A stretch of 45,400 bases of DNA from Promethearchaeota archaeon (GTDB lineage: Archaea; Asgardarchaeota; Lokiarchaeia; Sigyniarchaeales; SOKP01). Under the pieces are notes generated by a model that saw only the letters and a list, made by a program, of their open reading frames with translations, was not told the origin of the DNA and did not search any database. Position numbers and translations under genes: made by a program. The stretch covers positions 1-45,400 of the forward strand of contig JALGVJ010000041.1 in the NCBI GenBank assembly GCA_029838195.1, given 5' to 3'. Below, in pieces: positions 5,895-38,506 of this stretch; positions within the stretch are counted from its first letter, which is position 1, and the number at the start of each line of letters is the position of its first letter.

Positions 5895-8800
5895 GTCGCA
5901 AAGGAACAAGCTTCAAATAGAAGATTGAAACCATTTTATTATTGATTTTAATAATTTTATATTTCGATGTCGCAAAGGAACAAGCTTCAAATAGAAGATT
6001 GAAACTTTGTGGAGGGTCTACTGGTAGTTCAGGAAGTAACGTAATGTCGCAAAGGAACAAGCTTCAAATAGAAGATTGAAACCGAATTTTATGAACATTT
6101 TAAATGTCTCGCGGAAATGTCGCAAAGGAACAAGCTTCAAATAGAAGATTGAAACAGATCATTAAGCCCGCTTATGACATTCAAGAAATAATCGTCGCAA
6201 AGGAACAAGCTTCAAATAGAAGATTGAAACAGGTTAGGTTTATTAGCACTTAGTATTTGCCATTTAAGTCGCAAAGGAACAAGCTTCAAATAGAAGATTG
6301 AAACATGTTTTTGGTTTTGGGGGGACTGTTCCATCTTCATTGTCGCAAAGGAACAAGCTTCAAATAGAAGATTGAAACATTCCTTGATGGTTATTATTCC
6401 TTTTTGTATCCGTAATGTCGCAAAGGAACAAGCTTCAAATAGAAGATTGAAACGCAAGTTTTTCCATGATTATTTTTTTATCTTCTTGAGAGGTCGCAAA
6501 GGAACAAGCTTCAAATAGAAGATTGAAACATTAACTAAAGGGGTTGGGATTATTTAATATTGATTAGTCGCAAAGGAACAAGCTTCAAATAGAAGATTGA
6601 AACATTGCCGAAAAATCATGACCAATTAGATTTTTTTCCGTCGCAAAGGAACAAGCTTCAAATAGAAGATTGAAACAAAATCACGTCCGTGAGGCATGAG
6701 CTAAAGCCCGTGCGGGTCGCAAAGGAACAAGCTTCAAATAGAAGATTGAAACTTTCTTTATCGTTCAATGTAAGGTTAATAAGCCTTACAGTCGCAAAGG
6801 AACAAGCTTCAAATAGAAGATTGAAACCCCTTTATTGGTAAATAATACGATTCCCACGAGCTTGCGTCGCAAAGGAACAAGCTTCAAATAGAAGATTGAA
6901 ACTTAATGATCAGAACATCCCCGTGATTTATCATCATAGAGTCGCAAAGGAACAAGCTTCAAATAGAAGATTGAAACTATAAGGTAATATTTGAATAAAA
7001 TTCGGATCATTTTTTTTGTCGCAAAGGAACAAGCTTCAAATAGAAGATTGAAACAAATTTATTAATACCAATAGTTGAATTATTATAATACCGTCGCAAA
7101 GGAACAAGCTTCAAATAGAAGATTGAAACATTTTCCCGCCATTTCCATCATCGATTTTTATTATTCCTGTCGCAAAGGAACAAGCTTCAAATAGAAGATT
7201 GAAACCGTGAGATCTTATTTGCGGAGTAGAGGCTTTAAGAACGGTCGCAAAGGAACAAGCTTCAAATAGAAGATTGAAACTTGGAACTACTATTTTGATG
7301 AAGGGGAAAAAGATGAATGTCGCAAAGGAACAAGCTTCAAATAGAAGATTGAAACGAACAGTCGACAACACATTTGACGGCTTTAGAAAAATAGTCGCAA
7401 AGGAACAAGCTTCAAATAGAAGATTGAAACCATAGTTCTACTTGTTTTTTCAAATTTTCGATGTTTACGTCGCAAAGGAACAAGCTTCAAATAGAAGATT
7501 GAAACACTACGCTAGAATGACAGTAGTCCAGCCCTACTGTTCGTCGCAAAGGAACAAGCTTCAAATAGAAGATTGAAACACAAAAAAGTACCAAAGCCTA
7601 TCATTATTTTTTTTAGGTGTCGCAAAGGAACAAGCTTCAAATAGAAGATTGAAACCTGGCCATAATCAATAGTAAGAATAATAAGGAATCTAATGTCGCA
7701 AAGGAACAAGCTTCAAATAGAAGATTGAAACGGCTCCTCGTCGCATGACGGGGCACGTGACATTTCGGACGTCGCAAAGGAACAAGCTTCAAATAGAAGA
7801 TTGAAACAATAAATTAGTAAATTAATTTTTTTTTAATTTCTTTTGTCGCAAAGGAACAAGCTTCAAATAGAAGATTGAAACCCTGCTCGGCTGGACGGAA
7901 CGCAGGAAGCAGGTTGCGTCGCAAAGGAACAAGCTTCAAATAGAAGATTGAAACTTTATGATTTTTTCTATTTCTCGTGCTAAAATCAATGGTCGCAAAG
8001 GAACAAGCTTCAAATAGAAGATTGAAACAAGATAGGGTTGAGGAGCTCAAAAAAGAGGAAGAGCGGTCGCAAAGGAACAAGCTTCAAATAGAAGATTGAA
8101 ACCTACTAATATCTGGAACGTTAAATTTTCCTTCCTTATCGTCGCAAAGGAACAAGCTTCAAATAGAAGATTGAAACAATTGCGGACATTACCGAAATGC
8201 CTAGTCCAACGGGAACGTCGCAAAGGAACAAGCTTCAAATAGAAGATTGAAACATGATACTATTTATGATGTAAATGACATAGTCTACATTGTCGCAAAG
8301 GAACAAGCTTCAAATAGAAGATTGAAACAATCGTTTCCTGTAAAATTCGTTATCCTCCGCCATCCGGTCGCAAAGGAACAAGCTTCAAATAGAAGATTGA
8401 AACTTGCTACAACCACTGATGCAATTAACCGAATGATCACTCCGTCGCAAAGGAACAAGCTTCAAATAGAAGATTGAAACCATACCAAAGACAAAAATAT
8501 ATTAAATTTCCATCCTAGTCGCAAAGGAACAAGCTTCAAATAGAAGATTGAAACAGCTCGAAACTCGCTGGGTCAGACATGTCGTCAATTAAAGTCGCAA
8601 AGGAACAAGCTTCAAATAGAAGATTGAAACAACCAAAACCAGCCCATCATCTGGGCTGGGTTGTATCCTGTCGCAAAGGAACAAGCTTCAAATAGAAGAT
8701 TGAAACTGTTTTCTAATGTTCCATAATTTTCTTGGTAACCATGATGTCGCAAAGGAACAAGCTTCAAATAGAAGATTGAAACGTGTCAAATAGTGGGAGA

Positions 8801-11800
8801 TCATCATAAACACTGATTTCCGTCGCAAAGGAACAAGCTTCAAATAGAAGATTGAAACCCGTCTGCGTGTGCTTTCCACCGACGATCTTCCAGAGGTCGC
8901 AAAGGAACAAGCTTCAAATAGAAGATTGAAACAAGAAATTTCAACGGGGAATCTATTATGCCGTTGAGATGTCGCAAAGGAACAAGCTTCAAATAGAAGA
9001 TTGAAACTTCACGTTTCTCGGGAGCTCGTTCCATTATCGCTCGCTTTGTCGCAAAGGAACAAGCTTCAAATAGAAGATTGAAACAAACTCTTTTTCATAA
9101 TTACTCATTCAATCACCTTTTCGTCGCAAAGGAACAAGCTTCAAATAGAAGATTGAAACTTTTTTGTTTAGGCATTATTTACCCTCCTTATCTTAGAGTC
9201 GCAAAGGAACAAGCTTCAAATAGAAGATTGAAACTCGAGGGATTTTACTTCCAATGACCCCTCCCTCCCCCCCGTCGCAAAGGAACAAGCTTCAAATAGA
9301 AGATTGAAACAAAAGCCTTAGAGATTCTCCGACGTGTGAAATGAACTCGTCGCAAAGGAACAAGCTTCAAATAGAAGATTGAAACTGATTAAGTATGAAA
9401 TTCATTATTTTTTCATTTTTAAGTGTCGCAAAGGAACAAGCTTCAAATAGAAGATTGAAACATTATCTCCTTGGTTTTCTCGTCCAGATCCCTCCACATG
9501 TCGCAAAGGAACAAGCTTCAAATAGAAGATTGAAACTAGAAGCATGATATTCCGCTATTTGTGATTCTTGAGTAGTCGCAAAGGAACAAGCTTCAAATAG
9601 AAGATTGAAACAAAATGCAAGGACAGGAATACAAACCGTTTTCCAATGTCGCAAAGGAACAAGCTTCAAATAGAAGATTGAAACCATTTCGAATCCCGAA
9701 AGAAAAGCTAATCGAATTTCTTTTAGAAGTCGCAAAGGAACAAGCTTCAAATAGAAGATTGAAACTTCCAAACCTCAACTTCTATGGGGAGGTCACGTTG
9801 AGCGTCGCAAAGGAACAAGCTTCAAATAGAAGATTGAAACTTTCAATACTATGGGGAGTTGAGTACACGCAAACAATGTCGCAAAGGAACAAGCTTCAAA
9901 TAGAAGATTGAAACAAAAAGGAACTGAAATATTTATATGATAATAATTATTGTCGCAAAGGAACAAGCTTCAAATAGAAGATTGAAACTGTTACATGCAT
10001 TGCCCCCCAGGAAATGGGGATTATAGTGTCGCAAAGGAACAAGCTTCAAATAGAAGATTGAAACCATCCTCCCCTTCAATATCAATCCTTTCATATCCAT
10101 GTCGCAAAGGAACAAGCTTCAAATAGAAGATTGAAACTTTTCTACTTTATTTTTAAAAGACAAATATTTAAATAAACGTCGCAAAGGAACAAGCTTCAAA
10201 TAGAAGATTGAAACCGCTCCGCACGCTCGATGTGCTTGATTAATGTACTCCGCCGTCGCAAAGGAACAAGCTTCAAATAGAAGATTGAAACCATTACTAT
10301 TCCTGGACATTTTAATGACTATGACATGGTAATAGTCGCAAAGGAACAAGCTTCAAATAGAAGATTGAAACATCTATATGAGTATGAATATGAGCCTCCG
10401 CCATTACCAGAGTCGCAAAGGAACAAGCTTCAAATAGAAGATTGAAACAATTTTTCTTTTCGATTCATTTTTACATCATTTTTAATTGTCGCAAAGGAAC
10501 AAGCTTCAAATAGAAGATTGAAACACCGTAAACGCAAATGCTAAACCCTTGTTAAATCGCCTTAGTCGCAAAGGAACAAGCTTCAAATAGAAGATTGAAA
10601 CAAAAATCTAATTATTGATTGATCAAACTTGTTGTTGTGTCGCAAAGGAACAAGCTTCAAATAGAAGATTGAAACAATACGTCGAGATTTTCAGCTGATA
10701 TGCAGGAAATGTGTCGCAAAGGAACAAGCTTCAAATAGAAGATTGAAACTTTTTTTTATGATGTTTTAGCCGTGTTCTTTTCAATCGTCGCAAAGGAACA
10801 AGCTTCAAATAGAAGATTGAAACTTTAGGTGTTTCAGTAAATTTGCTCATGAATTCATCAGTGTCGCAAAGGAACAAGCTTCAAATAGAAGATTGAAACA
10901 CCGTCCATTCCTTTCCGCCAAAAAGCATGGCTTTTGTGTCGCAAAGGAACAAGCTTCAAATAGAAGATTGAAACTAAAGCAATTGAAGGGGTTTGTTTTG
11001 CGTTTCCTCCCAAAGTCGCAAAGGAACAAGCTTCAAATAGAAGATTGAAACAATTGGGCATATTTATCAGTTTCTAAATCGCTAAATAAAGTCGCAAAGG
11101 AACAAGCTTCAAATAGAAGATTGAAACAGACAGGCTCAAGGAATGCGAGCTCTACCTGGCCATGTCGCAAAGGAACAAGCTTCAAATAGAAGATTGAAAC
11201 CACCAAAAACCGCCCTTGGACGTGGAATCCACCCAGGTCGCAAAGGAACAAGCTTCAAATAGAAGATTGAAACATTTGCTCTATATTTCCCGCATAAATA
11301 TCTTTACCGCAGTCGCAAAGGAACAAGCTTCAAATAGAAGATTGAAACAGAAACTTTCCGTCAAGATTATCCTTCCGTTATAATTGTCGCAAAGGAACAA
11401 GCTTCAAATAGAAGATTGAAACATCTCCCACAGTACTCTGTCATTGTATTCCATAGATAAGTCGCAAAGGAACAAGCTTCAAATAGAAGATTGAAACTAA
11501 TGCTGGAATTCAGCGAGAATCGTGTTGGAGCCGATCAACAGTCGCAAAGGAACAAGCTTCAAATAGAAGATTGAAACATTTTTTTTTGAAACTCTTCTTT
11601 TTCCATTTTTAATCGTCGCAAAGGAACAAGCTTCAAATAGAAGATTGAAACATTTTTTTTTGAAACTCTTCTTTTTCCATTTTTAATCGTCGCAAAGGAA
11701 CAAGCTTCAAATAGAAGATTGAAACCGAACATCTTGAACTTCTTGACTTCCAAAATCGTTTTGTCGCAAAGGAACAAGCTTCAAATAGAAGATTGAAATA

Positions 11801-14739
11801 ACATTTCAGTCCCAGATGTGAAAGGACTGATTTTTAGTCGCAAAGGAACAAGCTTCAAATAGAAGATTGAAATTCATCTTCAATTTCTGAAATGTTGTTT
11901 GACGATATTGGTCGCAAAGGAACAAGCTTCAAATAGAAGATTGAAATCATTTAATGTCTCTCCTAGAGATTCATATGTTATTCCATGTCGCAAAGGAACA
12001 AGCTTCAAATAGAAGATTGAAATATATAAGGGGGCTCAACGTGACCTCCCCATAGAAGTTGAGTCGCAAAGGAACAAGCTTCAAATAGAAGATTGAAATG
12101 TTTTATAGAACAAGATTAAGATTTGGAGAAGGAGTAGTGTCGCAAAGGAACAAGCTTCAAATAGAAGATTGAAATGTGGACTCCCTTTCACGGGGAGTCC
12201 CCTTTATGCTCTGGTCGCAAAGGAACAAGCTTCAAATAGAAGATTGAAATTATTCTATCAATGTTGCGGGAACCCAATCCTGGCATTTTTGTCGCAAAGG
12301 AACAAGCTTCAAATAGAAGATTGAAATTGAATATCTTGATTAGTGCCCGGGAAAGACCATGTATCTGTCGCAAAGGAACAAGCTTCAAATAGAAGATTGA
12401 AATGACATTCAATCAACTAAATCTGGTCAAATAAAATGCGAGTCGCAAAGGAACAAGCTTCAAATAGAAGATTGAAATTACATCTCATGTTGAGTCCGAA
12501 GGACTCAGCAGCCAAGTCGCAAAGGAACAAGCTTCAAATAGAAGATTGAAATAAATTATTTGGAAACTCAAATCGATCATCTCTTTTCCTTGTCGCAAAG
12601 GAACAAGCTTCAAATAGAAGATTGAAATTAGGGATTCTGACCTCCTTTTTTAGCCCAAACTCCCTCGTCGCAAAGGAACAAGCTTCAAATAGAAGATTGA
12701 AATATTGCCTCAATGTCCTCAACGTAATTACTGATATCGCCGTCGCAAAGGAACAAGCTTCAAATAGAAGATTGAAATATGCAGCAGGTTTTTTTCCCTT
12801 ACCTTTAAATAATATTAATGTCGCAAAGGAACAAGCTTCAAATAGAAGATTGAAATTTTACAGCAAGTCACGGGTAAGGATATTCGCAGAATGGTCGCAA
12901 AGGAACAAGCTTCAAATAGAAGATTGAAATAATCAGTATCCATTCTTATTCAAAACCTCCCTAATTAAGGTCGCAAAGGAACAAGCTTCAAATAGAAGAT
13001 TGAAATTTTAATATAAATGGAAATAATAGAAATGGAATATTATAGTCGCAAAGGAACAAGCTTCAAATAGAAGATTGAAATAAATTTAGTAATTTTTTTG
13101 TCGTATTTCTTTCCATAAGAGTCGCAAAGGAACAAGCTTCAAATAGAAGATTGAAATTCAATCTCATAGAAATATTGGAATTTTCCAAAGAACATGTCGC
13201 AAAGGAACAAGCTTCAAATAGAAGATTGAAATTTAGGGTGTTAACCAAGAATGGGGCAAGACGAGAACGGTCGCAAAGGAACAAGCTTCAAATAGAAGAT
13301 TGAAATCATAGAGGAATTTTTTTTGCCTTTTTATATCTTTTGTCGCAAAGGAACAAGCTTCAAATAGAAGATTGAAATTGGAGGACGATTTTGACCCCGA
13401 CATGGAGGAATTTAGTCGCAAAGGAACAAGCTTCAAATAGAAGATTGAAATGATAAATGGCAATACCGCCTTTTCCCCACATTTCCGTGTCGCAAAGGAA
13501 CAAGCTTCAAATAGAAGATTGAAATTAGAAGATTGAAATCACCCCGACGGGGTTCATATGGTTCTTCTTCTCTTATAGTCGCAAAGGAACAAGCTTCAAA
13601 TAGAAGATTGAAATTTATTAAATTGTTCTACGTAAATCAGTTCATATACCTCGTCGCAAAGGAACAAGCTTCAAATAGAAGATTGAAATTATTAGTTAAA
13701 CGAAAAAGCCCCTTTCTCACAACGTATCGTCGCAAAGGAACAAGCTTCAAATAGAAGATTGAAATCTACATCAATAGCATTACCGAAAATCGTTTATAGG
13801 ACGTCGCAAAGGAACAAGCTTCAAATAGAAGATTGAAATACGATGAGGAGGCGCAGTCCGCACTGGAGGACACGAGCCGTCGCAAAGGAACAAGCTTCAA
13901 ATAGAAGATTGAAATTAATTAATAATAAACATAGAAGAATGGTGTATGCATATGTCGCAAAGGAACAAGCTTCAAATAGAAGATTGAAATTCATAATCGA
14001 TTATTTTTAACAATTTTTTTTCACTCCGTCGCAAAGGAACAAGCTTCAAATAGAAGATTGAAATTCATAATCGATTATTTTTAACAATTTTTTTTCACTC
14101 CGTCGCAAAGGAACAAGCTTCAAATAGAAGATTGAAACATGTATTTTTTGTTTGCTTTTATTACTCTCACCGCGTGTCGCAAAGGAACAAACTTCAAATA
14201 GAAGATTGAAACTGCTGTACACGGCATTGCTTAGCCCCTCCGTATCGGGGTCGCAAAGGAACAAGCTTCACATAGAAGATTGAAACGTTGATACGTTTTC
14301 CATCAATTCCTTGAGACAATATCCGTCGCAAAGGAACAAGCTTCAAATAGAAGATTGAAACCAGTTCCAGCACCAAACTTCATATATTGCTACATTCGTC
14401 GCAAAGGAACAAGCTTCAAATAGAAGATTGAAATATAATAGTCCTAAACCTATTCCTCCAGCCTTTTGATTTAAAGTCGCAAAGGAACAAGCTTCACATA
14501 GAAGATTGAAATCGATAATACGATTTTAGTGGTTTGTAGAGGCTATAATTCGTCGCAAAGGAACAAGCTTCAAATAGAAGATTGAAATCTCGGTAAGTAT
14601 TTCATATAATTCTTATCGCTCGATGGTCGCAAAGGAACAAGCTTCAAATAGAAGATTGAAATTCTTCAATGTCCTCAAAGAATGTGTTTACATCTTTATA
14701 TTGTCGCAAAGGAACGAGCTTCAAATAGAAGATTAAAAT
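5895..14739 (+). CRISPR. CRISPR array 1: 118 repeats / 117 spacers (manual count); 37-bp repeat GTCGCAAAGGAACAAGCTTCAAATAGAAGATTGAAA(C/T)
   Basis: Regular repeats with ~35-44 nt spacers. The ATTGAAA(C/T) 3' end, the left-side leader and the degenerate last repeat at 14703 fix the orientation. Confidence 0.99.
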
Positions 14740-22859: not shown

Positions 22860-24323
22860 ATGTTTCGGACAACTAATAAAATATATGAGAGTAAAGATAT
22901 TATTTTTGATTTAATCTTTAAATTTGGTTCTTTTGATCCCAATGAAAGGGAAAGATTATTACTGAATATCTCTAAAAATAATGAATTTTCGGGTTATATA
23001 GCTAGAGCATTATCAGATAATTTCTTAGATATTTCTATTGAAGTAAGACATACATTAATCTTTAATTTAATAAATTTTGAGAGAGCTATTCCCGAGATTT
23101 TAAAAATTCTGAGAAAATATTATGCCAAATTACCAAAAGAAATTTTTTATTATATAATAATTAATTTAGCAAAATATGAGGATGATCCTTCTGTTGAGGT
23201 TGCTAGATTTATATGGGATAAATTAGAAGATATTAATATCAATATTAGAAATGAATTAATATTAGAATTAGCATCCCATGAAGATTCTTCCATTGAAGTT
23301 CTTAAAATGATTTATGAAAAATTTGAACTTTTCTCTGATGAAGATATAGAAAAAATTCTATTAAAAATTACTGAATTTGAAGAATCTTCCCTTTTTCTTA
23401 TCGGATTGTTAAAAAATTCTGATTTTTTTAGTAGAATTCCCTATCAATTAATTAATAATATTTTAAAAAAGATTGTTGAATATGATAAAGTGAAAGAAAA
23501 ATTAAGTGAAATTATTCTTGTATATTTTGAACAAATCGATTTTAATTTAAATGAAGAATTATTAATAAAAATTTCAAATGAAGATCAAGCTGTAGAACAT
23601 ATTCTAGAAATCCTAAAAGTAAGGTCTCAATTATTCGATATTACTTTTCTTGAAAATGTTTTTAAAAATATAATTAAGACTTTGAGTAATTCAAAAGTAC
23701 AGAATTCTTTTGATGTACTAGCAGATTATTTATCAAATAAATTTGAAGAAATTCCATCTAAAATAAGAAATAATTTATTATTGGAGCTCTCTGAACATAA
23801 AGAAGTTGGATATATAATAGCAGATATATTATATAATTATTATGAAAAAATTCCTGAAAATATAAGGCAAAAAATTATTATAAATCTCCCATTTGATGAA
23901 AAAATTAATAATATACTTAAAGAAATATACGAAATAAATTTCTTAGAAATACAATTAGATAAATATTTAGAAGAAATTAGAAATTATATTTCAATTGATA
24001 TTCAAAAAGATTTATTTCTAAGTTCTGAAGAAACTAATTTTTCTGGAATACTTAGTTCAGTAAGGAAATTTATTGAAAAATTAATAAAAAATATTGCATC
24101 CGAAAAAATAAAAGATTTTAATAGAATTACAAATTACAAAATTATTAAGAGACTACGTGAAATTAATGTTATTTCAGAAAATCAGGAAAAAAATTTACTA
24201 TTTTTAAATGGTTATGGAAATATTGGATCACATAATACTCCAATTTCTTTATCTTTTAGGGAGAGAATCATGTTAGTATTAGCTTTAAGTCAAGTAATTG
24301 ATGAAATTTTATTCACGGATTAA
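22860..24323 (+). CDS. HEAT/ARM-like repeat protein with a C-terminal DUF4145/HEPN-like domain
   Basis: About ten ~33-aa helical repeats (e.g. FEEIPSKIRNNLLLELS, YEKIPENIRQKIIINL); C-terminus VRKFIEKLI...LREINVIS...GYGNIGSH. Confidence 0.65.
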   Translation: MFRTTNKIYESKDIIFDLIFKFGSFDPNERERLLLNISKNNEFSGYIARALSDNFLDISIEVRHTLIFNLINFERAIPEILKILRKYYAKLPKEIFYYIIINLAKYEDDPSVEVARFIWDKLEDININIRNELILELASHEDSSIEVLKMIYEKFELFSDEDIEKILLKITEFEESSLFLIGLLKNSDFFSRIPYQLINNILKKIVEYDKVKEKLSEIILVYFEQIDFNLNEELLIKISNEDQAVEHILEILKVRSQLFDITFLENVFKNIIKTLSNSKVQNSFDVLADYLSNKFEEIPSKIRNNLLLELSEHKEVGYIIADILYNYYEKIPENIRQKIIINLPFDEKINNILKEIYEINFLEIQLDKYLEEIRNYISIDIQKDLFLSSEETNFSGILSSVRKFIEKLIKNIASEKIKDFNRITNYKIIKRLREINVISENQEKNLLFLNGYGNIGSHNTPISLSFRERIMLVLALSQVIDEILFTD

Positions 24324-24390: not shown

Positions 24391-25173
24391 ATGATTCGAA
24401 TAAAATTAGAACTCAAACCAGAAGAAAAAAATGGAGCGTTTCAATATCCGCCTCTTGGGTATATTTTTCGAGCAATTTTAATGAAGTGGTTGACAGAGTT
24501 AAAACCTGATCTCGTTCAAGAATTACATTCTAGCAATAAAATTCGCCCTTATTCCATTCAAATAATGTGTCGTAGAGAAAAATTAATTTTTTATATCAAT
24601 ATTTTTAATCCTTCTTTAAGCTCTTTACTCATTAATGATTTAATTCAAAAAAAGCAAAAATCTTTTAAAATAATGAAACAAAAATATCTCGTGCGGAAAG
24701 CGTTATTTGAGGATATTTCAATAAATTCTTATCTTAGAAAAGGGCGTCCTGTAAGCAGTTTTAAAATTGATTTTTTGAAGCCAACTTTTTTTAATACTAC
24801 TCGAGGAGATTATTCAATAAAGCTCCCCATTCCTGAGATCATGTTCAGCAATCTCGTGAATCTGTGGAATGAATTTTCAGATGAGAAAGATAAAATCGAA
24901 AAAAATAATTTTCTACAATGGGTTAATCGATATATGTATCCAAGTAGTTTTAAAATTAAAACTCAAGCAAGAGAAATGGGAGAAAATTTACCTGCTTCAG
25001 GGGTTATTGGTTGGATGATCTATTTCTTAACTGAAAATCATCTCATTTATAATAAATATATTGATGGATTATGCAAATTAGGAGAATTAACAAATGTAGG
25101 AGGAGGTCGTACTGCGGGATTTGGCTTGATAAAATATACTCCTTTAGAATTTTTTGAATCTTCTACTAATTAA
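24391..25173 (+). CDS. cas6: Cas6 endoribonuclease (copy 1)
   Basis: LH...RPYSI, F.KPTFF, LPIP...NL..LWN, C-terminal GGGRTAGFG loop. Confidence 0.93.
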   Translation: MIRIKLELKPEEKNGAFQYPPLGYIFRAILMKWLTELKPDLVQELHSSNKIRPYSIQIMCRREKLIFYINIFNPSLSSLLINDLIQKKQKSFKIMKQKYLVRKALFEDISINSYLRKGRPVSSFKIDFLKPTFFNTTRGDYSIKLPIPEIMFSNLVNLWNEFSDEKDKIEKNNFLQWVNRYMYPSSFKIKTQAREMGENLPASGVIGWMIYFLTENHLIYNKYIDGLCKLGELTNVGGGRTAGFGLIKYTPLEFFESSTN

Positions 25174-27927: not shown

Positions 27928-29592
27928 ATGTTGCTTAATGCTTTAGTAAATATCGGAAGAGTAATTGAAGGGGAGACTGAATTAGAGGATTTTGCTAAAA
28001 AATATGATCCTGAAATTGTTAAATTTATAAACATGAGGTATAGTTCTCCTCCAAAAATGGATCGAATTGTTAAAATAAACATAGCTCCAGGAATTTTAGA
28101 TGCTTTTGATACTGTGAAATTAGGAATTGAAAGAATTGACCCTGAATTTTGGAAAAATATTATAGATAAATTTAAAAAAAAACTTGATAAAAAGAAAAGA
28201 GATGAAAATAAAAAGGAAGTAATTAATGAAATCATTAAAAAATTAAATCTTGATATCAATGACTTTCAAAGATACATTTCTTTAGAAGTGATTGAATATA
28301 ATAAAGAACATCCCTATCTAATGTTAAGAGGAGAAAAAAAAGGGAATAATGTTTTTTTATCGCCGACGATGTTTACTAAAATTTCTTCAAAAAAAATTGA
28401 ATCTTTCCCCTTATGGAAGATAAATTTAGATATATCGTTAATTTTACCTGAAAAAGAAGATGAGGAAATAATTTTTATTAAAAATTTTTTTCAAAATTTA
28501 CCAAGTTTATCAGAAACTTCAAAAATTAAAGAAATAGATGCCGATCTAATTTTTAAATTTATTATTTCAGAGATTTTTTTAAGAGTATTAAATTCTGACA
28601 TCGAAAGAGAGAATTTAAAAACAGGTTATTATTTTTTTCCCATCTGTTTTAATGGGAAGTGGCCTTATAATATAGAGATATTTAAAGAGTATTATAAAAA
28701 AAAGACATTATCTGATGAAAATGCCCCAATAGGAATATGTTCGGGATGCGGAGAAAGAAAAAATGTAGAGAAGGGCCTAACAAAAGAATTAGGTTTTTTT
28801 AGCATCGATCAAAATAGTTTTACGTATTCTTTTTTCAAGGATTCGAACTACCAATTATGTAATGAATGTAAATACTTAGTCGAAGTTGGATTTAATCATG
28901 TAAAAAAAGATTTAAGAATTTTTTTAGGCGCACGTGGGAGGGGGAAGAGAAAGAATCCATATGAATTATACGTTATTCCGATTGCGGATGACCTTCAAAC
29001 ATTATCTAAAATTTTGAAAGAATTAAAATTTACTAAGGATTATAAGGAAAAGATTATTAAGGCAGGAGAGTTGGCGCAAGAATCGAATAATCAAGAAGAG
29101 GAAGAGGGAGAAGAAGTTTCCGAACAAATTTTACCCGCAAAAGAAGATTTACATAATTTTTTTATTAATTATTATTTTAGTAGGGGAGAAAAGAAAGAGA
29201 AAGATAGATTTGAATTATTATTAATTACATATTATCATCCAGATGGGCAATCAAGTGATTTTCATAATATCATATCTATCGATCTTTTAGATCATGAAAA
29301 AATAATCAAGTTATCCGATGTGCTTTCCGAATTAGAATTAAACGGGGAATTTATTTCTTTAAAAGATATCTTTTTCCTATTTGGAATCCATAAATTTAAA
29401 ACATATATCAGTAAATATCTAAATTTAAAAAGAATTGATTTATCTACATTATGTCGAGACGCTTATTTAAATCTTAAACAAGAATTTTTTAAATTCATGT
29501 CCAATCCATCTAATCCGCCTAATTTTATTAGACTTAATTTATATAGACTGAATATTTATTTCAAATTAATAAATAAATTGAATTTAATATGA
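27928..29592 (+). CDS. cas8b: Type I-B Cas8b (Csh1/TM1802-like) lacking its C-terminal bundle
   Basis: MLLNALVNIG start, GICSGCG and YQLCNEC Zn finger, FFSIDQ, YVIP; first gene of the cas7-cas5-cas3 operon. Confidence 0.82.
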   Translation: MLLNALVNIGRVIEGETELEDFAKKYDPEIVKFINMRYSSPPKMDRIVKINIAPGILDAFDTVKLGIERIDPEFWKNIIDKFKKKLDKKKRDENKKEVINEIIKKLNLDINDFQRYISLEVIEYNKEHPYLMLRGEKKGNNVFLSPTMFTKISSKKIESFPLWKINLDISLILPEKEDEEIIFIKNFFQNLPSLSETSKIKEIDADLIFKFIISEIFLRVLNSDIERENLKTGYYFFPICFNGKWPYNIEIFKEYYKKKTLSDENAPIGICSGCGERKNVEKGLTKELGFFSIDQNSFTYSFFKDSNYQLCNECKYLVEVGFNHVKKDLRIFLGARGRGKRKNPYELYVIPIADDLQTLSKILKELKFTKDYKEKIIKAGELAQESNNQEEEEGEEVSEQILPAKEDLHNFFINYYFSRGEKKEKDRFELLLITYYHPDGQSSDFHNIISIDLLDHEKIIKLSDVLSELELNGEFISLKDIFFLFGIHKFKTYISKYLNLKRIDLSTLCRDAYLNLKQEFFKFMSNPSNPPNFIRLNLYRLNIYFKLINKLNLI

Positions 29593-30974
29593 ATTTGAAT
29601 AAAACTAATAATATCATAGAATTCGAGATAAATCAAGAAGATATTAAGGATCCCTATTTCACATTAGGAGAAATTGCTCGTGAGCTTAATTATTATTTTT
29701 TTATTAGCAATAATAGAGAGGAAAAATATAATATTATAATAAAAAACATTCCTGTTTTTATTAATTGGATTATAAAATCAAGGACCAATTTTGAATATTT
29801 ATTAAAATTATATCAGTTCTTAGATAAAAGATTTAAAGTTTATTTACCACAAAAAAAAATAAGAAATATAAAGAACATTTTAAATAATTATAATAGAAAC
29901 CGTATAGATTTAGATAATGACAAGATCCTTTATTATAAAAAGATCCTTAAGCTATATCAAAGAATAAACAAGAAGTTCAAAAAATTAAAGGTTTTTTTTG
30001 ATAAAAAAGAAAATTATAGGGAGATTAAATATTCTTCTTTAGCTGATTTATATTTTTTACAAGGTTTTGATAATTTTTCCTTAAAAGGAGAAGATACCTT
30101 TTTAAATAAATGGATTGAAGGAACCATTTTAAATGATAATATTTCATATAAAATCGCATTTATTTTGGGAAGATATTATTATAGAGTAGCAGAAAATGAA
30201 ATCAAATTAGTTAAAAATCTTGGCTTATCAAAAAAAATAGTTTCTTGGCTGAAGAAAATTCAAATTGAGAATTTTATAACATTATTCCGAGAGATTACCA
30301 TATCTTATTTTCATTTATTACGGAAAAGGCAAGATTTAAATAATCCTAAAGAAAGTGAAAAATCTAATCCACTTAAATTAGATCATTTGATACGATATAG
30401 AAGAATAATTGAAAAACTCTTAGATGTTTTCTATTTCGAAAGCGAAACAACAATTAACAATAATAATATTAATAATAAAATGATACAATTTTGTTTCATG
30501 AGCGGGTTTTTAGTGAGGAATTCTCCCATAAAAAAATCCATGAGTACTTATAAGAAGCTTAATTTCCCTCAAAAAAATGAATATACTAAATTATTATATG
30601 ATTTAGGTAAAATGGTAAGAATGATTAGTGAATATGAATTAGAAGAATTCCAATCTCATTCTTTTAAAAATATTATTAAAAAATTTCAAGATTTAAATCA
30701 TTCGAATATTTTATACATTTTATTACATGTTTCTAAAATCTTAATAAGAAATTGGTTAAAAAATGTCCAAAATATTCTTGGTAAAGGAACAAATGATGAT
30801 TTAATAAAAATAAAATATATTTATACAAAAAGGTATCATGACATTATTTATAGATTTTTACACTTAGATCAAAATAAAAAGTTTGATAAATATGCTGGAC
30901 CAATCGTTTTCATGATTGGTTTTAGTTCAATTCCAATTAAAAGTAACCAAAATTCAAAGAAGGTGAAAAAATAA
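29589..30974 (+). CDS. Stand-alone protein of three tandem Cas11b-like (Cas8b C-terminal) domains
   Basis: Three units each running from (F/Y)xLG to FxxGF; ATGA overlap with cas8b; stop abuts the cas7 GTG. Confidence 0.65.
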   Translation: MNLNKTNNIIEFEINQEDIKDPYFTLGEIARELNYYFFISNNREEKYNIIIKNIPVFINWIIKSRTNFEYLLKLYQFLDKRFKVYLPQKKIRNIKNILNNYNRNRIDLDNDKILYYKKILKLYQRINKKFKKLKVFFDKKENYREIKYSSLADLYFLQGFDNFSLKGEDTFLNKWIEGTILNDNISYKIAFILGRYYYRVAENEIKLVKNLGLSKKIVSWLKKIQIENFITLFREITISYFHLLRKRQDLNNPKESEKSNPLKLDHLIRYRRIIEKLLDVFYFESETTINNNNINNKMIQFCFMSGFLVRNSPIKKSMSTYKKLNFPQKNEYTKLLYDLGKMVRMISEYELEEFQSHSFKNIIKKFQDLNHSNILYILLHVSKILIRNWLKNVQNILGKGTNDDLIKIKYIYTKRYHDIIYRFLHLDQNKKFDKYAGPIVFMIGFSSIPIKSNQNSKKVKK

Positions 30975-31922
30975 GTGAGCGAAAAAAATGAAATAATTAA
31001 GAAAAGAAGAGAATTAGTTTTTGTCTATTCTGTCAGAGAGGCAAATCCAAATGGTGATCCAGATGATGAGAATCGCCCTCGTACAGATGATGATGGATTC
31101 GCCTTAGTTTCTGATGTGCGGCTTAAAAGGACGATTCGAGATTATTGGTTGTCGAATAACAGTGATGTGCTCGTAAAAAGAGTTTATGATGAGAAGGGGA
31201 ATATTTATGACATGAATAAGAGGATTACTTCTGTTTTAAGTGAAGATGATGCTGCCGATCGAACAAAAATTCTTGAAAAAATTCCAAAACAGTTCATAGA
31301 TGCACGATTATTTGGATTTGTTGGAACCGTGAAAGGAGCTAATTGTTCGCTAACAGGACCAGTCCAATTTAGTATTGGAAAATCTCTTAATAAGCCGAAT
31401 ATAACAACCCATACAATAACATCGGTGATGGCCGGAGCTTCAGAGAAAGGAGGATCTATAGGAGCATTCCATATATTAGATTATGCGTTGATAAGATTTC
31501 AAGGGGTGATTTGCCCTAAATTAGCAGAGATTTCTAAAATGACAAAAAATGACTTGAAAGAGCTATATGCAGGAATTTGGAAAGGAACACAGACATTAAA
31601 CACGCGATCTAAATTTAATCACGTACCCAAATTGTTATTGGCCTTTAGAAGCAAGGATGGCGAGTTCTTATGTGGTGAATTAGCTTATCAATTAGAAATT
31701 GAAGAAACAGAGGATCATAATGAAGAACCGATATTAGTGTTAGATCGTTTAATTGAACGAATTATTAATTTAGCTGATGATAATATTGAAGCAGTCGAGT
31801 ATTTAATGCAAACAGGATTTAAGTTGAAATACAATGGAAACGAATATCTTACCTTTGAAGAGTTATGGAAGCAAACCCCTTTGAAAGACAAAACTAGCTT
31901 AGAATTAATAGAATTATTATGA
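30975..31922 (+). CDS. cas7: Type I-B Cas7/Csh2
   Basis: ANPNGDPDDENRPR, VSDVRLKRTIRDY, DARLFG, TGPVQF, TRSK. Confidence 0.96.
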   Translation: MSEKNEIIKKRRELVFVYSVREANPNGDPDDENRPRTDDDGFALVSDVRLKRTIRDYWLSNNSDVLVKRVYDEKGNIYDMNKRITSVLSEDDAADRTKILEKIPKQFIDARLFGFVGTVKGANCSLTGPVQFSIGKSLNKPNITTHTITSVMAGASEKGGSIGAFHILDYALIRFQGVICPKLAEISKMTKNDLKELYAGIWKGTQTLNTRSKFNHVPKLLLAFRSKDGEFLCGELAYQLEIEETEDHNEEPILVLDRLIERIINLADDNIEAVEYLMQTGFKLKYNGNEYLTFEELWKQTPLKDKTSLELIELL

Positions 31923-32728
31923 GGATGATGCAAGCTCTTTGTTTTGATATTAAATCACCGTTTGCTTCGTTTCGGAACCCAACAACGACGAGAGGGTTTC
32001 TTTCATTTCCGTTTCCTCCTAGAACGACACTAATGGGCCTTATTGGAGCAATTTTAGGTCTACCGAGGAATGAAATTTATTTGAATGATCATCCCTTAAA
32101 TGATATGGAAATTGCTTTAAAAGTATTAAATACACCTTTGACTATGAATTTTAGGACAAATCAACTCCAAACTGCTGAAGTTCTGACATTATATAAAAAA
32201 TTTAAAATTTTCTTACCTAAACTCTATATTAGAGGTAAATTATCTGCTGAACCTTCACCACAAAATCTAGTTTTACTTAAGGATGTTCATTATCGAGTAT
32301 TTATTAAAATCAAAAATCATCAACAAGAATTAATAGAGGAATTAGAGACTAAAATAAAAGAAAGAAAATATAGCTATCCTCCTTATTTAGGGCGGGCAAA
32401 TTACTTAGCATCTATTGATTTTATTGATAAAGTAAATTTAAAAGAATTAATAGTAGAAGATGAGTTGATTGACATTTCTACTTTATGTTCAGCTAAAGAC
32501 GTTAAAAATGTGGAATCAGGAAAATTTAGTATTATAACTAACGTACCCATGTCGTATATGACTGAAAAGATAAAAGGGGAACTCAAATTAGAACCAGGTT
32601 CATTGATAAGTATTATTTATTTTACGGAGAACATTAAAGTAATTCCAGCGAAAGAAATATATGAAATTACTTCTACTGAATGTGAGGATTTAAAAAACTT
32701 GAATATAATTTTCCTGTCTTATCAATAA
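31919..32728 (+). CDS. cas5: Type I-B Cas5
   Basis: FASFRNP, SFPFPPRTTLMGLIGAILG, YPPYLG. Confidence 0.95.
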   Translation: MRMMQALCFDIKSPFASFRNPTTTRGFLSFPFPPRTTLMGLIGAILGLPRNEIYLNDHPLNDMEIALKVLNTPLTMNFRTNQLQTAEVLTLYKKFKIFLPKLYIRGKLSAEPSPQNLVLLKDVHYRVFIKIKNHQQELIEELETKIKERKYSYPPYLGRANYLASIDFIDKVNLKELIVEDELIDISTLCSAKDVKNVESGKFSIITNVPMSYMTEKIKGELKLEPGSLISIIYFTENIKVIPAKEIYEITSTECEDLKNLNIIFLSYQ

Positions 32729-32819: not shown

Positions 32820-33734
32820 ATGGTGGAAGAAATAAACACGGATTATATTGGTATTATTTTTCGGGATGATACAAGTTATGTTATTTTTAATTTTATAGAT
32901 CTTTGGCATTATTTAGAGTCTATATTTGAAGAAAATAACATTATAATTGAGAAGAATGAATTTGAAAATTTAAAGAAAGAAATTGTCTCTAATATTGATT
33001 CAAGTATTAAATGTTATTACGAGAATAGAGAATTTTATATAGTAAAAGATATCCTTGAGATAAAAACAATAGCATTATATTATGATGAGGATATAAATCT
33101 AGAGGATTATGAAGATGATCTTAGTGATTTTAATTTTGATGATTATTTGTTAGAAGATAATGGCCCAATAATTATTGATTATATTACTTGTTTTAATGAT
33201 AATGTCTTATATATTTATTCGAAAAAAAATAAGTACCAACCAATTGATGATGATTATAATCACTTAATAATTAAATTACCTTCTATTATTTCTTCGGAAT
33301 TTCAAATCCAAAATTATTGCCACATTTTTTGTAAATTAAGTATTTTATTTGTAATTTTTGAATATCTCATGAAGGATAATATGACCACACATATATATCA
33401 ACGATTTAATTTTAAGGACATGAAAATTAATACGATTCTGAAGCGCTTGAAGGGTAGCGTACAAATAAATAAAATTAATGATATAAAAACCGAAAAATCT
33501 CTATATTTTTCGGAAGATTATTCTCAATCGGATGTTTTTATTAATAAGTTATTAGTAAAAATATATAATATTCGTAATAAAATTTTTCATCAAGCTTATC
33601 CTAAAAATTTTACTCGACCTTCTAATTTCTCATATAAAGAGATTATAAAAATGTTTGAGATATTATGTAAAAATTATAAAGCATTTTTTGATTTTTTAGA
33701 AAAATGTGAAATGAGAGAAAATATTACAAATTAA
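32820..33734 (+). CDS. Hypothetical protein with a C-terminal HEPN-like domain
   Basis: 304-aa ORF between cas5 and cas3; IFEY...IRNKIFH (RxxxxH); acidic central tract. Confidence 0.6.
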   Translation: MVEEINTDYIGIIFRDDTSYVIFNFIDLWHYLESIFEENNIIIEKNEFENLKKEIVSNIDSSIKCYYENREFYIVKDILEIKTIALYYDEDINLEDYEDDLSDFNFDDYLLEDNGPIIIDYITCFNDNVLYIYSKKNKYQPIDDDYNHLIIKLPSIISSEFQIQNYCHIFCKLSILFVIFEYLMKDNMTTHIYQRFNFKDMKINTILKRLKGSVQINKINDIKTEKSLYFSEDYSQSDVFINKLLVKIYNIRNKIFHQAYPKNFTRPSNFSYKEIIKMFEILCKNYKAFFDFLEKCEMRENITN

Positions 33735-33777: not shown

Positions 33778-36612
33778 ATGATTGAAATGCAAAATGCTGC
33801 AGATGTATTATTTAGAATTTTTGAAGACAATAATGAATATCCTAGCTTAGCAACCAAAAGATTGGAATGTGAACACCCAGAATTAATATATCATATCAAT
33901 AGGATGTTAGAAATATATTTTAAATTTAAAGATAAATTATGCCCGGCTAGTTCAAATGAGAATTTTCGATTTTTTCTTGACTTAATTATCAAGATCGCAA
34001 TAATTTTTCATGATTTGGGAAAATTGAATTGTTTTTTTCAATGGAAAATGGCAAGGAATACAAACAGGATTGAGGTGAATGCGGGAGAATTTATTGAAAT
34101 TAAGAAAACGTGGAGTTATCATACAGAATTATCCGCTCTGATGGCGTGGTGTTTCATTAATTATTTAAAAGGAAAAGTCGGCATTCTAAAACCTCAAGAT
34201 TCCAAGGACCTTGATGAAAAAATGAATATTTTAATTGAATATTTGGATATTATTATAGTTAATTCTATTTTAACACATCATTCTTCCTTAGGGAATATAG
34301 AAGATTTGAGTCGATTTAAAAACTTAAAGCAAAGCACCTATAAATCTTATTATTCAATTCTCGTAAGGTCTTATTTCATGTATATAAAGAAAAGCTTACC
34401 ACATTTGATTACTCACCTAACTAAAAAATGGCAAAATAATGAGAAGTTCTGTAACAAGAATCATGCATCTTTTAAAAGAAATTTCGATTTCTTAGAGAAT
34501 CTTATTAATTTTGTTAATGAATTTTCATATGCAATAAATTATTTAAGTGCAAATCCCTTAAAAATTTTGGAAGATTTTAAGGGCGCTTTAATAAGAGAAA
34601 AATTTGATAAAATATTAAAAAAAGAAAAGAAGGAAAGGAAAATTATTTTATTTTTCCTTATCATCCATCTCAGTTCTGTTTTAACACACCTTGATAAATG
34701 GGAAGCAACAACATCAAGAACGAATAATGATTATTTTAAAAGCTTAGAATTTGAATCTCCTTTAATAAATACTGATATTAGGGGAAATCCTATTAAGATA
34801 ATTTCAGAATACTTAATGATTAAGAAAAGTAAAAGAGAAGAACCGTACCCATTAGATGCCATACGCGACCTTTTTTCTGATCACATCATAAATGAAGCTC
34901 AACACATTGAATTAAATAAGATTTATACGCTTACAGCACCTTGTGGTATTGGTAAAACGTTAGCCCTCTTAAATCTTGCATTTAATTTAAGGAGGAAATT
35001 TTTTCAAAAATATCAGTATTATCCGAGAATCATTTATGCTCTGCCATTTATCTCTATCTGCGATCAATTAGAAAAAGAAATTCAACAAATCTTTAAATGT
35101 CAATCTCAAACTAATATTTTAACCATTCATCATTATTTATCAGATTTAGACAAAAACACCTCTTTACAAGATGAGGAGGAGTATGTACCAATCCAAGATT
35201 TTAAAACGCTAAATACCTATGAAATAAAGAATTGGTTCTCAGAAATTATCGTAACTACGACCATTAAACTTTTTAACACCTTATTTACCTTTAATAAAAA
35301 AAATCTCATGAGATTTCATAAATTAGCGAATACAATAATTATAATTGATGAATATCATAGTATTCCTAAAAAATATCACGAATTAGTGAGGTGTTGTTTA
35401 TTACTTTTAACACGATTGTTTAATATGACTTTCATATTAGCAACTGCTACTACAGCAGGTTTATTTTTAGAAAAAGATCCATTAATTGAGCTGACATCTG
35501 GTATTTCTGAGAAATTTAATCCTATTAATCGTTATAAATTAAGATTCCATAATTCCAAAAAGATTTCTGATGGAAAGATACAATTTTGTAATGAAATTGG
35601 TTTAGAGGAGGCAAAAGAATTTTGTAGAAAAAGTTGTGAACAAAATCTCGATAAAAGTATTATGATTGTAATGAATACCCGAAAAAATGCGAAAGAAATA
35701 TATGATTACTTGGTTAATCAATGTAATCTTAATAGACCCATTTGCCATCTCTCAGCTAATTTAATTCCTTATCATCGAAAAAAAATTTTAGAAAAAATAG
35801 AGAAAATATTAAATAATTCTTCAAAAAAGAGAGAAGAGAATATAAAAACAAATATCGTTTTGGTCACTACTCAATTAATAGAAGCGGGAATTGATATTAG
35901 TTTTCAAAAAATCATTAGAGACTTAGGACCTCTTTATTCCATAGTACAAGTGGCTGGACGGTGCAATAGAAACATGGAAATAAAAGATATTGATAAGCTT
36001 CCTATTATTGACATTATAAATATTGAAAACAGTTTTAATAAGGTGTATGACCCTATTGATATTGATTCCGTTAAGATATTTCTCGAAAAACTACAAACAA
36101 AATATCATGATGAGTCAATAATGAAACATCCCGAATCAAAACCATCCGATCCTATGCTATCTCAAGGAACTTATATCGAAATTAATGAAAAACAAGTAAG
36201 AGAACAATTTATTGAATATCCTAAGATATTAAATGATAGAAAAATTCGAGAAGATGATTGCTATGAAAATGTTCTAAAAATGAATTTTAAACATCTTACT
36301 AAGAATTTCAAATTAATTAAAGAATTAGTGGACATTCCCATTATAGTGATTCCTGCATTTAAAAATTCTACGGATCCTATGATAAAGGAAATTCCTAAAT
36401 TAATCACTGATTTAAAGCAAGAACGGAGAAATGATTTTCCAAGAAAGCTTTATTCGTTTATGACAGATATTTATAAGAGCCAAAAAAGCAAAATTAAAAC
36501 TCCGCCTTTTGAACGAATTACAAATAATGGAATGGAATATTATATCCTTGATTTAAATAATCCCGCTGCTAAAAAATATTATGATAAAAAATTGGGACTT
36601 ATAATAGAATAA
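33778..36612 (+). CDS. cas3: Cas3 HD nuclease-helicase
   Basis: HDLGK, HH, TAPCGIGKT, DEYH, ATAT, TTQLIEAGIDI, QVAGRCNR. Confidence 0.97.
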   Translation: MIEMQNAADVLFRIFEDNNEYPSLATKRLECEHPELIYHINRMLEIYFKFKDKLCPASSNENFRFFLDLIIKIAIIFHDLGKLNCFFQWKMARNTNRIEVNAGEFIEIKKTWSYHTELSALMAWCFINYLKGKVGILKPQDSKDLDEKMNILIEYLDIIIVNSILTHHSSLGNIEDLSRFKNLKQSTYKSYYSILVRSYFMYIKKSLPHLITHLTKKWQNNEKFCNKNHASFKRNFDFLENLINFVNEFSYAINYLSANPLKILEDFKGALIREKFDKILKKEKKERKIILFFLIIHLSSVLTHLDKWEATTSRTNNDYFKSLEFESPLINTDIRGNPIKIISEYLMIKKSKREEPYPLDAIRDLFSDHIINEAQHIELNKIYTLTAPCGIGKTLALLNLAFNLRRKFFQKYQYYPRIIYALPFISICDQLEKEIQQIFKCQSQTNILTIHHYLSDLDKNTSLQDEEEYVPIQDFKTLNTYEIKNWFSEIIVTTTIKLFNTLFTFNKKNLMRFHKLANTIIIIDEYHSIPKKYHELVRCCLLLLTRLFNMTFILATATTAGLFLEKDPLIELTSGISEKFNPINRYKLRFHNSKKISDGKIQFCNEIGLEEAKEFCRKSCEQNLDKSIMIVMNTRKNAKEIYDYLVNQCNLNRPICHLSANLIPYHRKKILEKIEKILNNSSKKREENIKTNIVLVTTQLIEAGIDISFQKIIRDLGPLYSIVQVAGRCNRNMEIKDIDKLPIIDIINIENSFNKVYDPIDIDSVKIFLEKLQTKYHDESIMKHPESKPSDPMLSQGTYIEINEKQVREQFIEYPKILNDRKIREDDCYENVLKMNFKHLTKNFKLIKELVDIPIIVIPAFKNSTDPMIKEIPKLITDLKQERRNDFPRKLYSFMTDIYKSQKSKIKTPPFERITNNGMEYYILDLNNPAAKKYYDKKLGLIIE

Positions 36613-37642: not shown

Positions 37643-38506
37643 GTGTTTATCACGATTGTTCTTACCTTTGAATTATATCCTGAAAATGGGCACATACGTC
37701 CTTATGAAGTGCCTTTTGGATATGTTTTTAGGGGCGTGCTCATGAAATGGTTGAGCGATTGCAAGCCCGAATTAGTACATGAACTTCATGCGCATGAGCA
37801 AATCCGCCCTTATTCCATTAATTTTTTCATTTACCGCAAAATTCCAAAAATCGAGTTCAAGCTCATCACGTATCATGACTTGATTAGTGAGGTGCTTTTA
37901 AAGGATCTCATCTCAAATAATAAGTCGAAATTGTACATGGGAGAAAAATGTTATATTTTGTCTCAAATAGGATTTGAGCGCATTGACATTTCACAATTGT
38001 TGCTTTCCACACAGCCGGTAAAGGCGTTTTCCATTCGGTTCGTAACCCCAGTTTACTTTAATACAAGTTTGGGAGAATATCCCGTTCGGTTTCCCCTTCC
38101 CTCTCTTTTTTTCGGCAACTTGGCTAATATCTGGAACGCTATTAATAGCAAAGTTGCGGAAATTAATCGGGATGAATTAATAAATTGGATCAATGCCCAT
38201 GTCTATATTAGTTATTATAAAATGAAAACGGTTCAAAGAGACATAGGAAAACCAGAAAAAGTAAGTGGAGGATTAGGATCTGCTTCTTTTAATGTGCAAA
38301 AAGTTAATAAAAAATATTATGAAAAATTATTAGAGAATCAAGAATATTCATCGGAGAACTTTTCCATTCAAGAACATTATTTAGATAAGTGTCGCTGGTT
38401 AGACGCCTTATGCAAATTAGGACAATATACGAATGTAGGAGCAAATCGCACGGCAGGACTTGGAGTCATTAATTATTATCCAAGGGAATATTTTAAGGAG
38501 GTTTAA
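37643..38506 (+). CDS. cas6: Cas6 endoribonuclease (copy 2)
   Basis: Clear paralog of 24391..25173; GANRTAGLG loop. Confidence 0.93.
   Translation: MFITIVLTFELYPENGHIRPYEVPFGYVFRGVLMKWLSDCKPELVHELHAHEQIRPYSINFFIYRKIPKIEFKLITYHDLISEVLLKDLISNNKSKLYMGEKCYILSQIGFERIDISQLLLSTQPVKAFSIRFVTPVYFNTSLGEYPVRFPLPSLFFGNLANIWNAINSKVAEINRDELINWINAHVYISYYKMKTVQRDIGKPEKVSGGLGSASFNVQKVNKKYYEKLLENQEYSSENFSIQEHYLDKCRWLDALCKLGQYTNVGANRTAGLGVINYYPREYFKEV

Follow-up and report, generated by a model that had tools for sequence, protein, structure and literature searches.

The copy number of the small subunit Cas11 in CRISPR effector complexes is usually set by assembly, and in types I-B, I-C and I-D by a hidden internal start codon. 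Among described type I-B systems, Cas11b is made by internal translation of the 3' region of cas8b in Haloferax volcanii (PMC11899642) and in Synechocystis PCC 6714 (PDB 8H67, PMC11096372). The solved I-B Cascade of the latter contains seven Cas7 subunits, the C-terminal domain (CTD) of Cas8b and three Cas11b copies, for a spacer of about 35 nucleotides (nt) (PMC11096372). Here we describe a type I-B locus of an Asgard archaeon with a different arrangement. It lies on a stretch of 45,400 nt, called the window in the following (Promethearchaeota archaeon, assembly GCA_029838195.1, contig JALGVJ010000041.1, positions 1 to 45,400, forward strand), and has a cas8b gene without the part for the Cas11-like tail (product P0001), followed by a gene that we call cas11x3, the product of which (P0002) appears to carry three Cas11 units in one chain.

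The locus shares Cas7/Csh2, Cas5h, Cas3 and Cas6 with the Synechocystis and Haloferax systems, as well as a Cas11 that is apparently homologous to the Cas8b CTD, and the three units of P0002 match the three Cas11b copies of Synechocystis in number. However, Cas11b is nested in cas8b in those species, identical to its tail and free as a monomer, whereas here a tail-less cas8b is accompanied by diverged copies in a single chain. Cse2 (I-E), Csa5 (I-A) and the stand-alone Cas11 proteins of Asgard archaea are likewise encoded by a gene of their own between cas8 and cas7, but with one unit per gene and a copy number that is set by assembly. Fusion of repeated subunits, with fixed stoichiometry and position-specific divergence, is known from Cas7-11 (III-E), Cas7x3 and the multi-Cas7 fusions of III-D/III-Dv and III-I. 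In those cases the fused domains are Cas7 (with at most one Cas11) and serve type III RNA targeting, whereas here Cas11 is fused, Cas7 is monomeric and the system belongs to DNA-targeting type I. Cas11c and the Cas8c CTD of type I-C (PDB 8G9S chain H, 8DEJ chain I) are also among the closest known systems. Wherever our full-text literature searches turned up a fused Cas11, it was one domain (in effectors of III-E, III-D and III-I, with Cas8 or Cas10, or with a nuclease), and tandem Cas11 is not mentioned in the 2025 classification update. The triple chain is apparently undescribed, not as a new kind of system, but as a variant of the type I-B small subunit.

The Cas8b core and the units of P0002

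The gene set of type I-B (Csh/Hmari variant) is present in the window, with Cas7 of Csh2 type, Cas5h, an HD-helicase Cas3, Cas6 and an array. The P0002 gene lies directly upstream of cas7(Csh2)-cas5b-x-cas3, and the gene before it encodes a Cas8b core without Cas11-like CTD. A profile of the P0001 family matched canonical Asgard Cas8b of Csh1 type (605-671 amino acids, aa) over residues 201-393 of 642 only (hhalign 97.1%). Related loci with a single cas11 gene encode a Cas8 of 506-544 aa that is colinear with P0001 (99.6%, E 3.8e-24) and in turn aligns with residues 9-459 of canonical Cas8b. Because the alignment with canonical Cas8b stops before the CTD, and because neither the single-unit profile nor the unit profiles of Cas11 matched the P0001 family, we regard P0001 as a Cas8b without the Cas11-like tail, a core rather than a full member: the core with its zinc-finger region is there, the fused C-terminal Cas11-like helical domain is not. 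The six relatives of P0001 (39-54% identity) share with it an invariant CxxC...CxxC (C271/C274/C311/C314). P0001 itself (isoelectric point, pI, 7.5) had no direct match to Pfam and NCBIfam models, while its relative P0016 matched TIGR02556 (cas_TM1802) at positions 125-397 of 571 with E 1.4e-7, under the curated cut-off. In a structural ranking of 48,161 chains, the top three were N-terminal regions of Cas8c, and Foldseek against PDB gave Cas8c with an E of only 0.011.

An earlier note on this DNA, made by a model from the letters only, had read a split Cas8b that ends in ...YFKLINKLNLI and overlaps by ATGA with an open reading frame (ORF) of 461 aa. Both features are in the sequence, and the split holds as well, since P0001 aligns with no more than ~390-460 N-terminal residues of canonical Cas8b and has no detectable Cas11-like domain. 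The junction between the two genes varies in relatives, with gaps of 20 nt (locus L001), 26 nt (L035) and 1 nt (L038) and overlaps of 4 nt (L002, L036), and for this reason we take cas8b core and cas11x3 to be two genes. A single frameshifted gene is ruled out by these locus-to-locus differences together with the conserved two-gene order, and an assembly chimera by the identical order in independent NCBI, JGI and ENA assemblies. The ATGA overlap probably couples the translation of the two genes.

The three similar units that the same note had placed in the 461-aa frame can be located by paired motifs: [FY]xLG at the start (residues 24, 191 and 337) and F[LMIV]xG[FY] at the end (residues 156, 303 and 441). 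The pairs bound units at ~29652-30068, 30153-30509 and 30591-30923, and the tails of canonical Asgard Cas8b do carry the bundle motif that the note had given for the Cas8b C-terminus, here as AFLIG...F..G. A single sequence does not readily show the repeat, as BLAST of the thirds of P0002 against one another was not significant; a profile of four sequences gave a weak match between units 2 and 3 and nothing else. An AlphaFold2 (AF2) model from the family alignment is all helical, with a mean predicted local distance difference test score (pLDDT) of 80.4 and a predicted template-modelling score (pTM) of 0.83. It has three blocks of about five helices, mostly at pLDDT 80-95, in keeping with a Cas11 subunit, which is a small helical bundle of some 100-170 residues. 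For the whole model, Foldseek against PDB returned only membrane or helical proteins with E > 0.6. A shape search of the ESM Atlas found nothing related (TM <= 0.31), and a feature search of the Atlas with unit 1 gave no usable match. All three units are basic (pI 9.7-9.8).

Exhaustive phmmer searches of 1.84 billion representatives found 12 relatives of P0002 (70-478 aa, 20-51% identity), the near-full-length ones of which are colinear and retain all three motif pairs, and no fused or single-unit forms. Single-unit relatives surfaced only in a search of 400 Asgard genomes with the profile of the P0002 family. These stand-alone proteins (A4; loci L005-L012, L015-L017, L021, L022 and L046) have 138-170 aa, and in several Asgard genomes their gene lies between cas8-core and cas7(Csh2)-cas5-cas3, the position of cas11. 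With family profiles, unit 2 matched unit 3 (hhalign 95%, E 2.6e-8, 120 columns), and both matched the stand-alone proteins over the full length of the unit (unit 2: 98.1%, E 1.4e-13, 104 columns; unit 3: 97.5%, E 8.2e-12). The stand-alone profile in turn matched canonical Asgard Cas8b (605-671 aa) in its 190 C-terminal residues (97.6%, E 4.6e-12), the part from which Haloferax and Synechocystis make Cas11b by internal translation, and on the full-length Cas8b alignment it fell on columns 518-653. Three of eight stand-alone members also matched the NCBIfam Csh1 model (TIGR02591) at positions 282-347 of 395 (best E 1.8e-6). Judged by these profile comparisons, units 2 and 3 are homologous to Cas11 and the Cas8b CTD.

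That unit 1 is a diverged Cas11 copy as well is more weakly supported. With 156 aa and an extra helix it is larger than units 2 and 3 and far more diverged. When unit 2, unit 3 and the stand-alone proteins were pooled into one profile, unit 1 scored 23.05 against it, a value reached by none of 150 column-shuffled profiles (9.5 +/- 1.7); most of this score is owed to the F-x-x-G-F-D motif at the end of the unit. Its N-terminal half matched unit 3 (E 4.2e-4) and its C-terminal half the third unit of a sister family (E 3.3e-5), both colinearly. This sister family, family B (A5; 461-477 aa; loci L045 and L019), has the order cas8-core, triple gene, cas7(Csh2), cas5h, and each of its three units matches the single-unit profile (97.5-98.6%), the first being the most like stand-alone Cas11 (98.3-98.6%). 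Over units 2-3, family B and the P0002 family are colinear (98.6%, E 6.8e-16), with reciprocal best matches by position (second units E 6e-10, third units E 5.5e-9), and the family-B member in L019 alone is colinear with residues 49-449 of P0002, most of unit 1 included (93.6%, E 2.1e-7). Since a colinear family has a Cas11-like first unit, unit 1 stands in the place of a genuine Cas11 unit.

Unit 1 could instead have been recruited to another role, only units 2 and 3 acting as Cas11 subunits. It might then fill the role of the lost Cas8b CTD (R-loop locking, Cas3 recruitment) or bind an accessory protein, so that P0002 would be a CTD-like adaptor with two Cas11 units. Besides the size and divergence of unit 1, its best structural matches speak for this, which include the Cas8c CTD along with Cas11c, and so does the canonical "belly" of Cascade, which consists of a Cas8 CTD plus n Cas11 (PMC11096372). 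However, the Cas11-like first unit of family B indicates an ancestral state of three ordinary units, and in the co-fold described below the Cas8b hairpin lies on unit 3, not on unit 1. We consider recruitment unlikely, and it refines the explanation by a Cas11 trimer rather than contradicting it. The earlier note had proposed comparing each third with Cas8b C-terminal profiles: for units 2 and 3 the outcome was positive, mostly by way of the stand-alone proteins, while for unit 1 homology to the Cas8b CTD is limited to partial or motif-level matches.

Probable position of P0002 in Cascade

Co-folding with Cas8, another check that the note had named, came out in favor of an interaction. P0001 (residues 95-554) and P0002 reached a score of 0.71 (three runs: 0.73, 0.71, 0.71), as compared to 0.37 for the best of three controls. 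As a rough guide, since our own alignments were used, 58 of 80 solved complexes came up to this mark, as did 2 of 110 mismatched pairs. The runs shared at least 81% of contacts, with a partner pLDDT of at least 77. In the predicted interface, the last two helices of P0001 (505-554) contact unit 3 at its first and last helices (323-366 and 433-451), which supports docking of the C-terminal hairpin of Cas8b on unit 3.

Together, these data suggest that P0001 and P0002 replace the single cas8b product of a type I-B Cascade, as a Cas8b core plus a covalent Cas11 trimer on the Cas7 belly, with a probability that we put at roughly 0.8. Several results weigh against this reading. Direct profile matches to the canonical Cas8b CTD are weak (unit 2, E 3e-3; unit 3, E 2-4e-4), so that the link between P0002 and the CTD is mostly transitive, via the stand-alone proteins. 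P0002 matched no Pfam or NCBIfam model directly, those of Cas11 and Cas8 included, and none of the 13 family members matched a CRISPR family there. P0002 also had no match among PDB sequences, where searches with single sequences and with profiles A2, A3 and A4 found nothing meaningful. P0002 seems somewhat "sticky" in the model, as the score of 0.37 was obtained with chain 1 replaced, and part of the co-fold result may reflect likeness to known complexes, since Cas8-Cas11 complexes have been solved.

The lack of a direct curated-family match would also suit a P0002 that descends from Cas11 but works outside Cascade, as a decoy or as a helical protein with an accessory or regulatory role. We give this hardly any credence. 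The P0002 gene invariably lies between cas8-core and cas7, in the place of the single cas11 of relatives, all three units are kept down to 20% identity, and the co-fold with P0001 stands clear of its controls. Moreover, neither the operon nor the genome yielded a further source of Cas11: searches of the source genome with the single-unit profile and TIGR02591 detected no other Cas11 or Cas8b tail, the single-unit profile matching only unit 2.

If the reading as Cas8b core and Cas11 trimer is correct, P0001 would be the large subunit on the side of the protospacer-adjacent motif, with the zinc finger kept and the Cas11-like tail gone, and P0002 would be a basic 56-kDa chain of three Cas11 domains in tandem. 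One copy would run along the inner face (belly) of the Cas7-CRISPR RNA backbone, with unit 3 anchored by the C-terminal hairpin of Cas8b, and would stand in for three separate Cas11b in stabilizing the R-loop and holding the non-target strand for Cas3. The basic pI of the units and the co-fold with P0001 lend indirect support to such a role. We infer that P0002 is incorporated into Cascade with one copy per complex, that this copy makes up the whole minor filament, and that its units have individual, position-specialized roles. The spacers of array 1 are mostly 37-39 nt long, compatible with a backbone of about seven Cas7, and from the stoichiometry of the solved I-B complex, a belly for spacers of this length could be filled by one three-unit chain that the Cas8b hairpin anchors. 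As covalent linkage fixes the number and order of units, these would be free to diverge, unit 1 most of all.

A fixed chain may not be what finally enters the complex. P0002 could be a polycistron-like precursor from which free Cas11 monomers are released by internal starts or proteolysis, and in-frame internal initiation that yields Cas11 is indeed established in types I-B, I-C and I-D (PMC11899642; PMC11096372). P0002 and its relative P0007 have an in-frame methionine, M322, near the start of unit 3. However, M322 is missing from P0008, P0009 and most other members, and no column at the unit boundaries of the P0002 family has a conserved methionine (methionine-rich columns occur only within the F-M-x-G motifs), which argues against release by internal initiation. 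The pTM of 0.83 speaks for a defined arrangement of the units, and their unequal divergence, with orthology by position over two families, for a fixed chain and not interchangeable monomers. We therefore regard a precursor as improbable.

Starting from the fixed chain, one may go a step further, tentatively, and regard Cas11x3 as an asymmetric scaffold and a molecular ruler that is built into Cascade. With unit 3 anchored, the chain would set the length and polarity of the belly, and the units would have distinct jobs; the diverged unit 1, for example, might assume the R-loop locking or Cas3 gating of the lost Cas8b tail. This is a possibility that we hold to be doubtful.

Distribution, evolution and gene neighborhood

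The order cas8-core, triple cas11, cas7, cas5 was found in at least 8 loci, including L001, L002, L035, L036/L037, L038, L045 and L019. The synteny of cas8, a gene for ~450 aa and cas7 that the earlier note had suggested looking for thus recurs in other genomes. The single-unit profile had matches in 21 of the 400 Asgard genomes. Stand-alone unit ORFs of 139-171 aa occur in about a dozen genomes, in about five the unit is fused to the end of Cas8b frames of 527-658 aa, and triple ORFs are present in four (the window's genome, G082, G144 and G273).

In a tree of Cas7, all split loci (single, both triple families and one apparent re-fusion) form one clade (100/99), apart from the loci with fused Cas8b. 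Because this clade includes loci with a single cas11, detachment of Cas11 is older and wider than triplication: the split is common to a wider Asgard I-B clade with a single separate cas11, and triplication is a rare step within it. The picture in the earlier note of a bundle that was detached and triplicated therefore stands for units 2 and 3 and with less support for unit 1, and the detachment is found beyond this locus. The two triple families form separate clades (99/97 and 100/99), and their mutual position is a polytomy, compatible with one triplication or with two; a single origin is favored by the best matches between units in the same position. Within one genus of the same family as the window's genome, G273 has a triple cas11 (L045) and G278 a single one (L046), a contrast that points to a swap of complete effector modules and not to vertical inheritance. 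In L018 (G052:C357, 140-1585), a locus of the split clade, a single Cas11 unit is in frame with the Cas8 core (481-527-aa frame), which may be a secondary re-fusion or read-through.

The window as a whole is a CRISPR supercluster of low GC content (24-41%), and the closest database relatives of its proteins are from Asgard archaea, in metagenome-assembled genomes of Promethearchaeia and Helarchaeota. Besides the I-B effector operon, which is followed by cas6, cas4 and cas1, it contains a III-A module (csm1-csm5 and csx1), and array 1 is common to both modules. The features are collected in Table 1. For Cas3, the helicase core is over the curated cut-off (125 versus 102.45 bits) and the HD model slightly under it (41.3 versus 43.45). 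Between cas5 and cas3, where the window has P0005, L045 carries another Cas7/Csh2-like gene, which is diverged (338 aa, E 2.4e-35); P0005 showed no similarity to it on comparison. A member of the HFX_2341-like/DUF6293 family is also found upstream of cas8-core in L002, and the protein may be a conserved regulator of loci with cas8-core and cas11x3. A DUF2797 gene (1203-2120) adjoins cas1 in L036, a relative locus.

Table 1. Coordinates of the cas8b core, cas11x3 and other features of the window
Feature	Position	Strand	Basis or remark
cas8b core, P0001, 554 aa	27928..29592	+	ORF ending ...YFKLINKLNLI
ATGA stop/start overlap, cas8b core/cas11x3	29589..29592	+	read in sequence
cas11x3, P0002, 461 aa, 56 kDa, pI 9.8	29589..30974	+	three tandem Cas11-like five-helix units
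P0002 unit 1, residues ~17-172	29637..30104	+	diverged Cas11-like bundle, extra helix
P0002 unit 2, residues ~173-318	30105..30542	+	Cas11 unit by profile homology
P0002 unit 3, residues ~319-461	30543..30971	+	Cas11 unit by profile homology; predicted contact site of Cas8b C-terminal hairpin
cas7, Csh2 type (I-B)	30975..31922	+	TIGR02590, 193.8 bits versus cut-off 171.55; PF05107
cas5b (Cas5h)	31919..32728	+	TIGR02592, 109 bits versus cut-off 97
304-aa gene (P0005), between cas5 and cas3	32820-33734	+	no family match
cas3 (HD + helicase)	33778..36612	+	TIGR01587, E 3.6e-36; TIGR01596, E 1.6e-10
HFX_2341-like/DUF6293 winged-helix gene, adjoins I-B operon	36631-37458	-	
cas6	37643..38506	+	PF10040, E 1.3e-11
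Metallo-beta-lactamase-fold gene, adjoins cas4	38581-39759	-	
473-aa gene adjoining cas1	42088-43509	-	no family assigned
CRISPR array 1	5895..14739	+	119 of 123 repeats found; 37-nt repeat, end ATTGAAAC/T
Second CRISPR array	from 45135		
487-aa gene downstream of csm5, III-A operon	22860-24323	+	no NCBIfam match
260-aa gene downstream of csm5, III-A operon	24391-25173	+	no NCBIfam match

What a probable triple Cas11 chain would mean

The value of Cas11x3 is mainly architectural and evolutionary, with some for engineering. In human cells, it was the separate supply of Cas11 that got compact Cascade-Cas3 editors to work, according to Tan et al. (2022) as cited in PMC11096372. Should Cas11x3 indeed act as a ruler, it would be a natural one-gene answer to the problem of Cas11 dosage, by which the use of compact type I systems in heterologous hosts is limited. 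It would then also be for type I what the Cas7 fusions, from which single-protein effectors arose, are for type III.

Apart from the ruler idea, a natural single-chain Cas11 trimer would mean that the minor filament can be hard-wired, and it would provide a handle on the number of small subunits that a I-B Cascade needs and on whether their positions are equivalent. It would carry the trend toward fusion that is known from type III (Cas7-11, Cas7x3) into type I. Within the Asgard archaea, the loci form a graded series, from Cas8b with a fused tail, to a split cas8 with a single cas11, to a split cas8 with cas11x3.

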